Positions 2,851 through 7,648 of a stretch of DNA of 7,648 nucleotides are shown here, one piece after another. Source of the DNA: a virus. Its lineage: Duplodnaviria; Heunggongvirae; Uroviricota; Caudoviricetes. The stretch spans positions 1-7,648 of the IMG/VR virus record IMGVR_UViG_2617270973_000013. One strand, written 5' to 3'. Under the pieces are notes generated by a model. It was not told where the DNA came from, made no database searches, and saw nothing but the letters and a program-made list of their open reading frames with translations. The position numbers and the translations under genes were made by a program. The first letter of the stretch is position 1, and every line of letters starts with the position of its first letter.

Positions 2851-3895
2851 ATTTCAGCGCCCGACGCTGGCAGAAAATATCAGTATGCTCCGTAACGATT
2901 TATTCGCCAGGCTGGACGTCAGCGACACGCTCCGGCGCATGGATGAAGACGTGCGGGCAAAGGTGTATGCGGCGGCGCTGCATACGGTTTACGGGTACAT
3001 CGATTATCTGGCAATGAATATGCTGCCTGACCTGTGCGATGAGTCCTGGCTGGCGCGACATGCTGCGATGAAACGGTGTCCGCGCAAGGGGGCCACGGCT
3101 GCCAGCGGGTATATGCGCTGGGAAGGTGTCAGCGATGGCCTGAAGGTGACCGCCGGGAGTGTTATTCAGCGCGATGACCTGGTTCAGTACACGGCAACTG
3201 CCGATGCAACCAGCTCCGGTGGTGTCCTGCGCGTGCCGATCGCCTGCTCAAGTGCAGGTGCGGTCGGTAACGCTGACGACGGTACGGCATTAATCCTGGT
3301 CACGCCGGTGAATGGTCTGCCGTCTTCCGGTGTGGCTGACACCCTTACAGGCGGATTTGATACTGAAGAGCTGGAAACGTGGCGCGCCCGCGTCATTGAG
3401 CGGTATTACTGGACGCCTCAGGGCGGGGCTGACGGGGACTATGTCGTCTGGGCTAAAGAAGTGCCCGGCATTACCCGCGCATGGACATACCGTCACTGGA
3501 TGGGAACGGGAACTGTCGGTGTGATGATTGCCAGCAGTGACCTGATTAATCCCATTCCGGAAGAATCAACGGAAACGGCAGCAAGACAACATATCGTGCC
3601 ACTGGCCCCGGTGGCAGGCTCTGATTTGTATGTATTCAGGCCGGTGGCACATACGGTGGATTTTCATATCCGCGTGACGCCGGACACACCAGAAATACGA
3701 GCCGCCATCACCGCGGAGTTGCGTTCGTTTCTTCTGCGTGATGGTTATCCGCAGGGAGAACTGAAGGTATCGCGTATCAGTGAGGCGATTTCCGGTGCGA
3801 ACGGGGAATATAGCCATCAGTTGCTTGCACCGGCAGACAATATCTCCATTGCGAAAAATGAACTGGCGGTTCTGGGGACGATTTCATGGACGTGA
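2837..3895 (+). CDS. Baseplate J-like protein (Mu gp47-like wedge subunit)
   Basis: 352-aa ORF, matching the size and position expected for a Baseplate_J protein between gp46 and gp48. It overlaps the next gene by 10 bp (ATG 3886, stop 3893-3895). Confidence 0.7.
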
Positions 3896-4470
3896 CAAAC
3901 GATGATTACATCCGTCTGTTGTCGGCACTGTTGCCACCCGGTCCGGCGTGGTCAGCCAGAGATCCGGCGATTGCCGGTGCGGCACCGTCATTAACCCGCG
4001 TTCATCAGCGTGCGGATGCCCTGATGCGGGAGCTGGATCCGCGCACCACCACTGAACTGATAAACCGCTGGGAGCGTCTGTGCGGTCTGCCGGATGAATG
4101 TATTCCGGCGGGAACGCAGACTCTTCGCCAGCGTCAGCAACGGCTGGATGCGAAGGTTAATCTGGCGGGCGGCATCAATGAGGATTTTTACCTTGCACAG
4201 CTTGCTGCCCTGGGCAGACCAGACGCTACTATCACGCGATACGATAAAAGCACGTTCACCTGCTCATCGGCCTGTACTGACGCAGTGAATGCGTCGGAAT
4301 GGCGGTATTACTGGCAGGTCAACATGCCAGCCGCCACCAACACCACCTGGATGACATGTGGCGATCCCTGTGATTCCGCACTGCGTATCTGGGGCGACAC
4401 CGTTGTCGAGTGCGTGCTTAACAAACTCTGCCCGTCGCATACCTACGTAATTTTTAAATATCCGGAGTAA
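3886..4470 (+). CDS. Mu gp48 / P2 gpI-like tail protein (DUF2313, YmfQ-like)
   Basis: 194-aa ORF directly upstream of the tail fibre, the length and position I recall for YmfQ/gp48-family proteins. Stop TAA at 4468-4470 is followed 3 bp later by the stf ATG, with GGAG at 4464-4467. Confidence 0.65.
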
Positions 4471-4473
4471 TCC

Positions 4474-5238
4474 ATGCATCGTATAGACACGAAAACCGCG
4501 CAGAAGGATAAGTTCGGCGCGGGTAAGAACGGTTTTACCCGTGGTAACCCCCAGACCGGCACACCTGCCACCGATCTGGATGATGACTACTTTGACATGT
4601 TGCAGGAAGAACTCTGCAGCGTGGTGGAGGCATCCGGTGCCAGCCTGGAGAAGGGGCGGCATGACCAGCTGCTTACCGCGCTTCGTGCGCTGCTGTTAAG
4701 CCGCAAGAATCCGTTTGGTGATATCAAATCGGATGGCACGGTGAAAACGGCTCTCGAAAACCTTGGTTTGGGAGAAGGTGCTCCAGCTATTGGCGTTCCG
4801 TTCTTCTGGCCGTCCGCCGCAATGCCAGATACCGTAATCGAAAGCTGGTCCGGCATGGTGTTTTTGAAGTTCAACGGCGCGAAATTCTCTGCCACTGATT
4901 ACCCTGTGCTGGCGAAAGTGTTTCCTTCGCTGGTATTACCTGAAGCCCGCGGTGATTTCATTCGTATCTGGGATGATGGTCGTGGTGTAGATAGTGGACG
5001 TGGATTACTTAGTACGCAGTCTGACCTGATGAAACAATTTACTTTGCAATACTACGGTCCTTCTGCTGGTACTGGAACAAGAACGGTTTTCGCCCTCCAG
5101 AGTAATGCGAACGGCATATATACGAGTGGTATTAGTCAGAATGATGGTAGTGGCACCGCTGCGGCTTTTAATGTACCAGGCGGCACCGAAACACGCCCAC
5201 GTAACATTGCATTCAACTTTTTAGTAAGGGCTAAATAA
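4474..5238 (+). CDS. Tail fibre protein (constant N-terminus Sc, residues 1-~97, fused to variable C-terminus Sv in the present orientation)
   Basis: 254-aa ORF. The N-terminus has a [16 protein letters not shown] motif resembling Mu S / P2 H N-termini (from memory). The C-terminal part ([10 protein letters not shown]...[15 protein letters not shown]) resembles a phage tail-collar / receptor-binding domain. The crossover site sits in-frame at codons 94-101 (LENLGLGE). Stop TAA 5236-5238 overlaps the tfa ATG (TAATG). Confidence 0.8.
4751..4776. repeat. Left crossover site (Hin/Gin-type, 12-2-12): CTCTCGAAAACC-TT-GGTTTGGGAGAA
   Basis: Both half-sites fit the TTnTCnnAAACC pattern recalled for hix/gix/cix sites. 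A perfect 14-bp inverted copy of 4763-4776 occurs at 6608-6621. The site lies inside the stf coding sequence. Confidence 0.8.
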
Positions 5239-5831
5239 TGAAACCTGTTTTTGATAAAAATGGGCTGGCTACAGTGCCGGGTGATATGCGTTGTTTTTAT
5301 TATGATGCAGTAACGTCTGAATATACTGGCTGGTCTGATGAATATATTAATACTGGTGTAAGTATGCCCGCCTGTTCCACTGGTATTGACCCGGGCGAAT
5401 ACATTCCGGGGAAAGTGGCAGTATTTACGGGTAAGGGATGGAGCCATGAAGAAGACCACCGCAATGAGACTGCTTACTCAATCGAAAATGGCGCAGCTGT
5501 TACAGTGGATTATATCGGTGCCATCAAAGACGGTTATGTCACGCTTTCACCGTTAACGCCATACGATAAATGGGATGGTGAGAAATGGGTGACAGATACT
5601 GAGGCACAGCATAGTGCCGCAGTAGACGCGGCAGAAGCACAGCGCCAGTCGCTGATTGATGCTGCAATGGCTTCCATCAGTCTGATTCAACTGAAATTGC
5701 AGGCCGGGCGGAAGCTGACGCAGGCAGAAACAACCCGACTTAACGCCGTGCTGGATTACATTGACGCGGTGACGGCAACAGATACCAGCACCGCGCCGGA
5801 TATCATCTGGCCTGAACAGCCGGAGGCGTAG
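5238..5831 (+). CDS. Tail fibre assembly chaperone (Tfa / Mu U-like)
   Basis: 197-aa ORF coupled to stf. The C-terminus (LDYIDAVTATDTSTAPDIIWPEQP) carries the conserved tail-fibre-assembly motif and an N-terminal FYYD motif. Confidence 0.8.
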   Translation: MKPVFDKNGLATVPGDMRCFYYDAVTSEYTGWSDEYINTGVSMPACSTGIDPGEYIPGKVAVFTGKGWSHEEDHRNETAYSIENGAAVTVDYIGAIKDGYVTLSPLTPYDKWDGEKWVTDTEAQHSAAVDAAEAQRQSLIDAAMASISLIQLKLQAGRKLTQAETTRLNAVLDYIDAVTATDTSTAPDIIWPEQPEA

Positions 5832-6243
5832 GCCATTCAATATCTGGAGCACTGGAAATATCAACCATTTCCAGTGCGTCCAGATAATCAAGCCATGAAT
5901 TATATTGCGCCAGTTCCTCACCTTTCAGACGACCAATAGCAGCCTTTCCTGGCCACTGCTTACTGTTAATATATTCATTAACTCGATTTATGAGTGCCTG
6001 TTTTTTTCGTTCCGCTTCTGACAGTTGTTCTTCATGAGTTAGCGGCGGTACGTCATCCCATGCAGGATAGCCATCATCACCCGCAACTCTCACCTTCCCT
6101 GGAGGTGGGGACAGGTACTTAATAAATATATCCTCATCAACTTCAACTCCATTATGAGGCCATAACCCAGACTCCTTATACTGACTTTCCAGAGTAAATG
6201 GGTAAAACATATTAGTTTTAGCATCGTAAAGATATTTACTCAT
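5803..6243 (-). CDS. Alternative tail fibre assembly chaperone (Tfa' / U'-like) inside the invertible segment
   Basis: Begins MSKYLYDAKTNMFYPF, a typical Tfa N-terminus, and ends with the conserved LDYLDALEMVDISSAPDIEWPTPP motif. Start ATG at 6243-6241 is preceded by AGGAAG and lies 1 nt after the Sv' stop (TAA at 6247-6245). The 24 extra upstream codons in the ORF track (to 6315) overlap the end of Sv' and are judged not to be the real start. Confidence 0.8.
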   Translation of the reverse strand: MSKYLYDAKTNMFYPFTLESQYKESGLWPHNGVEVDEDIFIKYLSPPPGKVRVAGDDGYPAWDDVPPLTHEEQLSEAERKKQALINRVNEYINSKQWPGKAAIGRLKGEELAQYNSWLDYLDALEMVDISSAPDIEWPTPPAVQAR

Positions 6244-6244
6244 T

Positions 6245-6621
6245 TTATCTTCCTGTAGCAAACCAGCGGCAACCAGCGACAGTTGGAACATTGAAGGATG
6301 GATTTCCTTTATCAAGAGATCCCAGGTTCTCTGCTATGACATTTGAGTTAGTCAATTTATAGAATTGCCATACTGACATTTTCCCTGCCACAGGAGCCTG
6401 GTCATGTTCATTAATAGAAATGACGGCTGTCGGAAATGGGATAGGAAAATTAATCAAAACTTCATTTGTTGTGGCCCCAGTTAGCCCCCATTGTTCAATA
6501 TAACCATCCGGGCTTCGCCTCCATCCCGTCGTTGTATCTCCCCCACACTCCCACGCTGACATATCAGGAATTTGGTTTTGCCCGTTACCCACATCCCGTT
6601 TTGCCGCTTCTCCCAAACCAA
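6245..6621 (-). CDS. Alternative tail fibre C-terminal cassette (Sv'), start-less; expressed only as an in-frame fusion to Sc after inversion
   Basis: - strand ORF with no ATG; the track's initial 'M' is a TTG at 6616-6614. Directly stitching the sequence after inversion at the crossover core gives ...ENLGLGE-AAKRDVGNGQ..., in frame with stf codons 1-98. It is immediately followed by tfa' in the stf-tfa arrangement. Confidence 0.75.
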
Positions 6622-6633
6622 CCTTTCAAATAT
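6608..6633. repeat. Right crossover site: TTCTCCCAAACC-AA-CCTTTCAAATAT (inner half canonical, outer half degenerate)
   Basis: Positions 6608-6621 are the exact reverse complement of 4763-4776. The core AA is the complement of the left core TT, as required for inversion. The site ends 59 bp upstream of the invertase ATG. Confidence 0.8.
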
Positions 6634-6660
6634 TTTTCTGAATCAGGTGATATTTCGCCT

Positions 6661-6687
6661 CTTCTCCTGTTTTTACAACAGGAGAAG
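6661..6687 (+). promoter_or_regulatory. Perfect 10-bp stem / 7-nt loop hairpin (CTTCTCCTGT-ttttaca-ACAGGAGAAG) whose 3' arm contains the invertase Shine-Dalgarno
   Basis: Inverted repeat read directly from the sequence. No U-tract follows on either strand, so it is not a canonical intrinsic terminator. It could equally be a palindromic protein-binding site. Confidence 0.4.
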
Positions 6688-6692
6688 CACTC

Positions 6693-7256
6693 ATGATTTA
6701 CGGGTATGTACGTGTATCAACAAATCATCAGGATACAGAGTTGCAACGTCTTGCACTTGAGTCAGTTGGCTGTGAGCGAATTTATGAAGAATATGCCAGT
6801 GGCAGAACAGCTAATCGCCCTGTGTTAAAGGAATTAATTACGGTGATGAAAAGTGGAGATGAGTTGATTGTCTGGAAGTTAGATCGGATAGGGAGAAATG
6901 TGCTGCATGCGCTATTGATGTTTCAAAATCTGCACGAAAAAGGTGTTAATTTTCGGAGTATTACAGATGGCGTAGACCTGAAAACAGCAAGTGGTCGCTA
7001 TAATTTCCGTAATATTCTTTCTGCTGCGCAGTATGAATCTGATTTGAATAGCGAGCGAACTTTAGCTGGTTTGGCTATTGCCAGATCCAAAGGCCGGATT
7101 GGTGGGCGTAGACCGAAGTTTAGCGACGAGCAGTGGCAACAGATGGGAGCGCTCATAGCGGCAGGGAAATCACGGCGTTATGTTGCACGTATCTATAACG
7201 TTGGGCTATCAACCCTATATAAACGATTTCCTGTTACTGGCATTCAAACGAAATAA
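6693..7256 (+). CDS. Serine recombinase, DNA invertase of the Hin/Gin/Cin/Pin family
   Basis: 187-aa ORF with N-terminal YGYVRVSTNHQDTELQ (catalytic Ser in the YVRVST motif), VWKLDRIGRN, and C-terminal GRIGGRRPK and helix-turn-helix-like region (RRYVARIYNVGLSTLYKR). Strong SD GGAG at 6681-6684, 8 nt before the ATG. It lies directly outside the right crossover site. Confidence 0.9.
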   Translation: MIYGYVRVSTNHQDTELQRLALESVGCERIYEEYASGRTANRPVLKELITVMKSGDELIVWKLDRIGRNVLHALLMFQNLHEKGVNFRSITDGVDLKTASGRYNFRNILSAAQYESDLNSERTLAGLAIARSKGRIGGRRPKFSDEQWQQMGALIAAGKSRRYVARIYNVGLSTLYKRFPVTGIQTK

Positions 7257-7399
7257 TTTAAAAGCAATTTAAAGAGTTATTTGTCTAATGTTGGAAGCCG
7301 CAGCCACGTCGTATGCAAGAACGTGCTGCGGCTGGCTGGCGAACTTTCGATAGTGCGAGTATTGAATGATTTCCAGCCGTTACCGATTTTACGTGTTAA

Positions 7400-7648
7400 T
7401 TAGTGAACAAACCACTCGTCAGCAGATTCCCAGGTATCTTTCAGAGTCTCCTGAACAAAAGTTTTTGCAGAATCCTTATCTGCGGTGCGTGTAACAGAAA
7501 GGCCATCGTTGCTGGTGGCTTTTACGATCACCTCTACATCGTCATAACGTTTACTGATGCGTCGGGTTAATTCTTCCTTTAACGCATCCACAGCACCGGT
7601 TGGCATTTTAGTCATTTTTTCTTTGGCTATGCAGATTTCAATACGCAT
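7400..7648 (-). CDS. DinI-family protein (DNA-damage-inducible protein I-like)
   Basis: 82-aa ORF; the N-terminus MRIEICIAK and C-terminus [17 protein letters not shown] closely resemble E. coli DinI as I recall it. The ATG lies exactly at the window end (7648-7646), so its promoter and any LexA box are outside the window. Confidence 0.7.

Follow-up and report, generated by a model that had tools for sequence, protein, structure and literature searches.

Organization of the locus

The analysed DNA is a 7,648-nucleotide stretch (hereafter the window) of a tailed-phage genome, IMG/VR record IMGVR_UViG_2617270973_000013, in which a tail-fibre gene is followed by two oppositely oriented chaperone genes, a second fibre C-terminus and a serine DNA invertase gene (Table 1). 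Pfam places baseplate J and Mu gp48/YmfQ genes upstream of the fibre and a DinI-like gene downstream of the invertase, and the closest genomes show a tyrosine integrase, adjoining dusA, at the end of the element. Two 26-bp crossover sites delimit a segment containing two convergent arms, each composed of a fibre C-terminus and a chaperone gene, and the invertase gene begins 59 bp beyond the right site. This is the layout of a host-range segment: two C-termini with chaperones of their own, in opposite orientation, both in frame with a single N-terminus.

Table 1. Features of the fibre switch locus, with positions in the window.
Feature	Position	Strand	Details or basis
Expressed tail-fibre gene, 254 aa: constant N-terminal part and variable C-terminus Sv	4474–5238	+	ORF, PHROG
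Constant part of the fibre gene, codons 1–97, outside the invertible segment	4474–4764	+	Collinearity
Left crossover site, pixL-identical	4751–4776	+	Outer half CTCTCGAAAACC, core TT, inner half GGTTTGGGAGAA
Central dinucleotide TT	4763–4764		Probable place of 2-bp staggered cut and exchange
Invertible segment, 1,855 bp between core dinucleotides	4765–6619		Inverted alignment to E. coli E4
Fibre assembly chaperone paired with Sv, 197 aa	5238–5831	+	Caudo_TAP E 4.8e-28; PHROG 105 tail fiber assembly
Silent chaperone paired with Sv', 146 aa from ATG 6243	5803–6243	-	Caudo_TAP E 2.7e-34
Silent alternative fibre C-terminus Sv', gp53-like (123 codons at 6245–6616)	6245–6619	-	Pfam Gp53-like_C E 1.5e-12
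Right crossover site	6608–6633	+	Inner half TTCTCCCAAACC (as in pixR), core AA, non-canonical outer half CCTTTCAAATAT
Serine DNA invertase, 187 aa, phi80 PinL-like clade	6693–7256	+	Pfam Resolvase and HTH_7

The silent fibre piece Sv' has no N-terminus attached to it. An in-frame minus-strand TGA lies three codons outside the right core, and the silent copy therefore lacks a start of its own, while the ATG of its chaperone gene overlaps its stop codon. The N-terminal PHROG tail-fibre families matching the 254-residue product end at residues 98–104 and the C-terminal ones start at residues 72–106. A Pfam search of this fibre returned no match, and NCBIfam offered no specific family for either the fibre or the invertase. 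A promoter and terminator scan of positions 4300–7400 yielded fewer matches than shuffled sequences and no strong promoter in the segment.

The left site is identical to pixL

The left site starts at the second base of codon A93 and runs through codons L94 to E101 of the fibre frame, so that the peptide across it reads KTA and then L94-E95-N96-L97-G98-L99-G100-E101, and its central TT forms bases 2 and 3 of codon L97 (CTT, 4762–4764). A preliminary description of this DNA had given the site's letters, coordinates, codon numbers and peptide LENLGLGE, all of which agree with the sequence and the ORF translation. When the two half-sites are read as a dyad, 9 of 12 positions agree.

Published pixL is listed as TTCTCCCAAACC AA GGTTTTCGAGAG (Table 3, PMC3241671), and the reverse complement of 4751–4776 matches it at 26 of 26 positions. 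The same 26-mer occurs in stfP (ycfK) of the cryptic prophage e14 of E. coli K-12 MG1655, in the same gene and at the same codons. The likeness to e14 extends upstream, with window positions 3108–4778 aligning at 96.9% DNA identity from part of jayE through ymfQ into stfP; the N-terminal part of the fibre gene is itself 96.9% identical to stfP, and homology ends one or two bases past the left site. Judged by its letters and its gene, the left site is pixL itself in an orthologous position, and hence already known.

The right side of the locus has a different affiliation. Published pixR is TTCTCCCAAACC AA CGTTTATGAAAA (PMC3241671); the right site shares its inner half and core, agrees with its outer half at 6 of 12 positions and with the whole at 20 of 26. 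The window is thus e14-like on the left only, where it carries pixL, and has neither pixR nor PinE on the right.

Inversion of the e14 P segment at the repeats TTGGTTTGGGAGAAGG / CCTTCTCCCAAACCAA has been demonstrated by whole-genome sequencing and qPCR, with PinQ and PinE as the responsible enzymes (PMC12529663, NAR 2025) and with PinR added as an inverter in the Discussion of that paper. The window shares 15 of the 16 bases of these repeats at both ends of its segment. The published junctions were mapped to the resolution of the 16-bp repeats and not of the central dinucleotide (PMC12529663).

Pairing of the two sites

Reverse-complementing the inner half of one site gives exactly that of the other, and the cores read TT (left) and AA (right); the two sites are therefore inverted relative to each other, at a centre-to-centre distance of 1,857 bp. 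The longest inverted repeat in 4400–7300 pairs positions 4758–4777 with 6607–6626.

Scanning all 7,648 bases with the family consensus TTCNNNNAAACNNANGTTTNNNNGAA at up to three mismatches retrieved only the left and right sites, against 0.17 matches expected from shuffled sequences, and the left site fits the family pattern TTCNNNNAAACN-NA-NGTTTNNNNGAA with one mismatch on the minus strand. We also built a position weight matrix that excluded pix and drew on 15 published sites (hix, gix, cix, mix, nix and bix). Among 15,246 positions this matrix gave the highest score, 28.9 bits, to the left site and the second highest, 24.9 bits, to the right site, with the next unrelated position at 12.6 bits and a background of -26.8 ± 9.1. 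The consensus scan and the non-pix matrix together rule out chance as the origin of the left site, and the earlier proposal that it is a 12-2-12 site of the Hin/Gin family is borne out by this first rank and by the complete match to pixL. The further statement, that the left site but not the right is near-canonical, also holds, as consensus mismatches number one (on the better strand) and three, respectively. All three mismatches of the right site fall in its outer half, and its dyad agreement is 5 of 12 positions.

A third crossover site, as in Min-like multiple inversion, was sought in the window with both the full consensus and the half-site pattern, and none was found.

Flipped arrangements in related genomes

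We derived the junction sequences expected after inversion between the cores and looked for them in 5,426 complete genomes of E. coli. The flipped left junction, joining the constant part to the gp53-like end, was present at full length in seven genomes (97.8–98.6% identity), and the window's own left junction in 72. E. coli E4 is collinear with the window over the 4.7 kb on the left (98.0%) and has positions 4758–6621 inverted, at 98.7% identity over 1,864 bases. Embedding of the site in the fibre frame, as claimed in the preliminary description, is confirmed by reading through this junction: the flipped frame runs on into the silent C-terminus to give a fibre of 221 residues, and this predicted protein has an annotated counterpart in E4, with 96% identity along its entire length. 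The right side of E4 consists of pinE and pixR, so E4 differs from the window by an inversion and by a different invertase module, with the break at 6621/6622.

A full-length flipped right junction, accompanied by a window-type invertase, likewise occurred in seven genomes (95.6–97.4% identity). Three dusA prophages, those of TUM9754, PEC122 and RM9088, carry invertase modules 99.4–99.8% identical to that of the window; both 26-bp sites of RM9088 and the right site of TUM9754 are identical to the window's. In all three, the window's Sv–chaperone arm lies inverted by the right site and a different cassette occupies the expressed position. E4, TUM9754, PEC122 and RM9088 are each collinear with the constant part up to the left site, whichever way the segment is turned, and both orientations are thus seen across genomes.

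The exact flipped isomer, with both window cassettes and the same type of invertase, was absent from the 5,426 genomes. The lists of flipped-left and flipped-right genomes have no accession in common, and PEC122 and RM9088 share the Sv arm only; the evidence for activity with the window's invertase therefore comes from related prophages sharing a single arm. Since the two sites agree in their inner halves but not in their outer ones, these natural arrangements confine the exchange to the 15 shared bases 4763–4777, of which TT forms the outer margin. The differing inner half-sites of TUM9754 could have narrowed the exchange to the seven bases TTGGTTT, and the corresponding flipped right junction was absent from the same 5,426 genomes.

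Proposed mechanism of inversion

We favour, with a probability of roughly 90%, the reading that 4751–4776 serves as the left-hand recombination site in a tail-fibre switch of the e14 type (Pin, P segment), carried by a Mu/SfV-like, dusA-type prophage. This explanation is preferred because of the identity of the site, its rank under the formal matrix, the anatomy of the locus, the natural isomers, the inversion experiment in e14 and a drop in conservation at the site (see below).

As in Hin, Gin and Cin, a dimer of the small serine invertase would bind each 26-bp site with one subunit per 12-bp half-site, and the left site would pair with its inverted partner at 6608–6633. Cleavage of all four strands at TT/AA would produce ends with a 2-bp stagger; these would be rejoined after one half of the complex had rotated by 180 degrees, leaving the 1,855-bp segment 4765–6619 flipped. 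Constant codons 1–97 would then be joined either to the present C-terminus (a 254-aa fibre with a 197-aa chaperone) or to the gp53-like one (221 aa with 146 aa). The receptor-binding tip would change, and with it presumably the host range. The reading frame would survive a flip, since G98-L99-G100-E101 is encoded by either inner half-site, and the two fibre forms are the same in protein through residue 101. The earlier estimate of about 97 constant residues is accurate at the DNA level, where codon 97, with the central TT, marks the limit of the constant part, and is refined in this respect for the protein.

For Hin and Gin, 2-bp staggered cleavage of the core and exchange by subunit rotation are established (PMC3241671), and the core is the established place of exchange for Cin as well; in the P1 record the crossover is annotated inside cix. 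By analogy, cleavage in the window would fall exactly at TT. We infer that the segment flips in the source strain itself, presumably by means of the invertase encoded beside it and not of some other Pin enzyme that the cell may contain.

The sites as module boundaries

Matches of window positions 4300–7300 to thousands of E. coli loci start at 4752–4760 and end at 6621–6626, that is, at the two sites. The invertase module is at least 99% identical in about 77 genomes, in which homology starts exactly at the AAACC-AA of the right site and the DNA to its left is unrelated. The exact 26-mer of the left site is present in at least 120 IMG/VR contigs. Across 90 distinct IMG/VR contexts, per-column conservation over the roughly 55 bases upstream of the 26-mer is 0.8–1.0, with one column at 0.64; past the 26-mer it is 0.99 at the first base and about 0.5 from the next base onward. 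The same contexts contain 48 distinct 30-mers directly downstream and 18 directly upstream.

Fifty-one IMG/VR loci have at least 3 kb of sequence downstream of the 26-mer, and 38 of them contain one inverted partner at a distance of 1.5–1.95 kb, of the pixR type in 32 and of the window type in two. In the other 13, which resemble the fixed fibres of SfV, at least 3 kb of downstream sequence contains no partner site, which shows that the 26-mer can persist unused. SfV itself matches the window up to 4777 and has no invertase.

That crossover sites also serve in the exchange of cassettes is an old idea. The boundary pattern at the sites fits such exchange between phages, and one could go further and suppose that the left site mainly swaps fibre cassettes by site-specific or short-homology exchange, with in-place flipping being infrequent. 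The coincidence of homology boundaries with both sites speaks for this, as do the invertase module that begins at AAACC-AA in some 77 genomes, the greater diversity downstream of the site than upstream, and the joining of the segment to pinE/pixR in E4 and to a PinL-type module in the window, with the break at 6621/6622. Cassette swapping is, however, compatible with in-place inversion, and the anatomy of two sites, two cassettes and an invertase is what inversion needs; moreover, inversion at the same repeats has been shown experimentally in e14 (PMC12529663). We consider swapping as the main role of the site highly improbable.

Somewhat less improbable, though still very unlikely, is that the site is a relic: the 26-mer would be kept for the fibre peptide LENLGLGE as part of an e14/SfV-type N-terminal module, and the switch would be locked by a degenerate right site and an invertase gene without a recognisable enhancer. 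The partnerless 26-mers of the 13 IMG/VR loci and the invertase-free match to SfV agree with such retention, and the three consensus mismatches of the right outer half, together with the lack of a 48-bp Fis pair in the invertase gene or elsewhere in the window (see below), agree with a lock. Against this stands the Sv arm, which occupies the opposite position and orientation in related dusA prophages whose invertase modules are nearly identical to the window's, RM9088 having both sites and TUM9754 the right site unchanged. The invertase reading frame is intact, including S9 and D64/R65/R68, and the silent C-terminus and its chaperone gene are intact frames as well. In addition, related invertases in several genera keep a CCTTT outer half, which argues for use of the right site over decay.

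An e14-type inversion switch accordingly remains our preferred reading of the left site. Under it, the prophage carries a standard host-range switch, and annotators can attach the silent C-terminus at 6245–6619 to the fibre gene. They can also correct the name 'integrase', under which RefSeq lists the product in several genomes. The 26-bp site appears once more as a boundary for the exchange of fibre cassettes and invertase modules between phages. The left site is real and ordinary; what is less ordinary, and lies outside the finding of the preliminary description, is the invertase clade and the right half-site.

A divergent invertase clade

The invertase contains Resolvase (E 4.4e-36) and HTH_7 (E 7.4e-12) domains, aligns with the Gin structures 3uj3 and 4m6f at E 4e-56 and free of gaps over residues 1–181, and is 55% identical to PinE. 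Its motifs GYVRVS9TNHQ (with the catalytic S9), WKLD64R65IGR68 and GRIGGRRPK are intact, so that it has the catalytic motifs, GR-rich arm and C-terminal helix-turn-helix of a small serine DNA invertase. The closest named relative of its gene is pinL of phi80 (80.9% DNA identity over 578 bases).

We collected 12 further relatives, 64–82% identical to the window's invertase, from Kluyvera, Trabulsiella, Pseudocitrobacter, Morganella, Erwinia, Citrobacter, Shimwellia, Apirhabdus and one metagenome-assembled genome. All share an invariant, divergent helix-E motif, SGRYNFRNILSAAQYESDLNSERT, at a position where Gin has MGRFFFHVMGALAE(M/V)ERELIIERT and PinE the near-identical MGRFFFHVMGALAEMERELIVERT. 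In most loci of the clade that keep a recognisable site, the outer half on the invertase side carries CCTTT and not GGTTT or CGTTT.

Enhancer sequences also set this gene apart. The P1 record places the enhancer at bases 19–90 of cin. Inside that stretch, a loose Fis consensus detects two matches with a spacing of exactly 48 bp (gene bases 23 and 71), and gin and pinE contain the same pair. No such pair was found with this consensus in the window's invertase gene, in its 12 relatives or anywhere in the window; the homologous positions in the window's gene have one and three mismatches. No canonical enhancer is therefore visible. Synonymous variation is lowest in invertase codons 1–20 (0.36–0.40, compared with 0.5–0.75 elsewhere), and this stretch may contain some cis element.

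At the protein level, residues K47, R48, K51, Q151, R154 and L155 of Hin are reported to be uniquely conserved for activation by Fis and the enhancer (PMC3798978). The window has K46, E47, T50, Q150, A153 and L154 at these positions (Gin numbering), which is an incomplete set. The positions equivalent to Hin 51 and to Hin 151, 154 and 155 vary within the clade and are kept by PinE and Gin.

These sequence comparisons allow a tentative suggestion, which we regard as possible but doubtful, that the switch is run by a distinct PinL-like clade that is naturally independent of Fis and the enhancer or is regulated differently. We keep it at this level because the Fis consensus used is loose and because synonymous variation is low in codons 1–20. 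If true, a widespread enterobacterial clade of invertases may act on pix-type sites without a canonical Fis enhancer, which would matter for the control of directionality and timing in serine invertases and for the question whether other Pin enzymes in the cell can flip the segment, as PinQ does for e14.

The Fis-independent reading combines the motif SGRYNFRNILSAAQYESDLNSERT, a canonical pixL-type site together with a CCTTT half, and the lack of both a Fis pair and the Fis-contact residues. Hin, Gin, Cin and PinE, as examined here, carry an enhancer or are described as Fis-dependent.

Comparison with known inversion systems

The e14 P segment (stfP-tfaP-tfaE-stfE-pinE) and the window have in common the left site and the right inner half and core, as well as two fibre ends and two chaperone genes. 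The cassettes differ, with only about 400 bases around the ends of the chaperone genes matching at 91%, and the segment measures 1,797 bp in e14 compared with 1,855 bp in the window. In e14, stfE supplies a start and thereby a second chimera, StfE2 (PMC12529663), whereas a StfE2-like chimera is not expected in the window. The elements themselves also differ: the window belongs to a complete-looking prophage of the dusA-integrating type, and e14 is a remnant integrated at icd.

The Mu G (Gin, gix) and P1 C (Cin, cix) segments likewise have a 12-2-12 site inside a fibre gene, S, with a constant and then variable parts, paired chaperone genes U/U' and an invertase gene adjoining one site. The left site agrees with gix at 18 of 26 positions and with cix at 20 of 26, and the core in Mu is GA. 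Two Fis-consensus sites 48 bp apart distinguish the Cin, Gin and PinE genes from the window's invertase gene. Salmonella hix/Hin shares the site architecture (hixL, 20 of 26) and the enzyme family, and hixR resembles the window's right site in having one degenerate half-site with CC next to the core (PMC3241671); Hin, however, flips a promoter, whereas the window's segment carries coding cassettes.

In phi80, the source of the closest named invertase, an inverted repeat (IR3) is annotated just upstream of pinL, at the position of a hairpin that covers the ribosome-binding site in the window. The fibre piece by pinL is annotated there as a pseudogene fragment and phi80 has no complete invertible segment, in contrast to the complete switch of the window.

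A 15-base inverted repeat, 4778–4792 with 5838–5852, was considered as an extra crossover site and rejected, as no half-site motif adjoins it. It encodes ...APxI... in both genes, and by our own estimate about 0.2 such repeats are expected by chance.

The invertase clade and its crossover sites

The window invertase, a serine DNA invertase of 187 residues, falls in a phi80 PinL-like clade and shares 55% identity with PinE of the E. coli K-12 e14 system. The helix-E motif SGRYNFRNILSAAQYESDLNSERT is invariant across the window protein and 12 relatives in other genera. The Fis-contact residues known from reports on Hin, Gin and Cin are absent from the window protein, which has K46/E47/T50 and Q150/A153/L154.

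The right crossover site carries a CCTTT outer half next to the invertase gene, and this arrangement is also found in relatives from Trabulsiella, Morganella, Kluyvera, Shimwellia and one metagenome-assembled genome. This recurrence across several genera marks the non-canonical half-site as a conserved feature of the clade rather than a product of decay. At the other end of the invertible segment, the exact pixL 26-mer of the left site also occurs in L036 (a 37,074-bp IMG/VR contig; 952-977) and 12 more IMG/VR loci, within fibre genes for which at least 3 kb of downstream sequence contains no partner site. The similarity of SfV to the window ends at 4777.

Features of the window and related loci
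Feature	Locus	Coordinates	Strand	Remarks
Invertase	window	6693-7256	+	phi80 PinL-like clade
Right-site outer half	window	6622-6633		starts CCTTT (AAACC-AA-CCTTT); adjoins invertase gene
CCTTT-type site	L006	239-264
CCTTT-type site	L009	4900-4925
CCTTT-type site	L012	4882-4907
CCTTT-type site	L013	4893-4918
CCTTT-type site	L015	4922-4947
15-base inverted repeat	window	4778-4792 / 5838-5852		14/15
Unmatched fibre patch	window	5008-5196		residues about 179-241
In-frame TGA	window	6617-6628	-	silent fibre end
Hairpin	window	6661-6687		11-bp arms, loop TTTAC
Small inverted repeat	window	6646-6659		GGTGA-N4-TCGCC
DinI-like gene	window	7400-7648	-	reaches window end

Enhancer scan and upstream hairpin

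A scan with a loose Fis consensus detected a pair of sites, at bases 23 and 71 of the gene, in each of cin, gin and pinE; these positions fall within the annotated enhancer of P1. The same scan gave no pair at 48-bp spacing in the window invertase gene (6693-6900 region) or anywhere else in the window. Despite the missing pair, codons 1-20 of the invertase gene are the minimum of synonymous variation.

Immediately upstream, a perfect hairpin (arms CTTCTCCTGTT and AACAGGAGAAG; z -4.5 against shuffles) spans the ribosome-binding site, 6 bases ahead of the ATG of the invertase gene. Close relatives keep it, the C-G pair at the stem base being replaced by T-A in a compensating change, and phi80 has an annotated inverted repeat (IR3) at the same position upstream of pinL. 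One possible role of the hairpin is to hold down invertase translation. A further small inverted repeat lies nearby.

Fibre ends and prophage setting

About 190 bases of the expressed fibre C-terminus are unmatched in four related loci (L002, L003, L142 and L143) that are otherwise 92-98% identical to the window; the segment is a hypervariable patch that probably belongs to the receptor-binding tip. In the silent fibre end the reading frame meets a TGA directly outside the right site. Whereas e14 stfE has its own start, the silent end has none, and no second chimera like StfE2 is therefore expected from this locus.

The 15-base inverted repeat has one arm abutting the left site and the other where the two chaperone genes meet. 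Neither arm has a half-site motif beside it, and the repeat is probably explained by chance or by similar coding (APxI).

In related genomes the DinI-like gene is followed by a tyrosine integrase and dusA, which puts the window close to the right end of a prophage of the dusA-associated kind. In RefSeq, many E. coli genomes (for example L003, 5175-5921) carry the tail-fibre protein under the name 'integrase' and others under 'hypothetical protein'; the former looks like a propagated misnaming.
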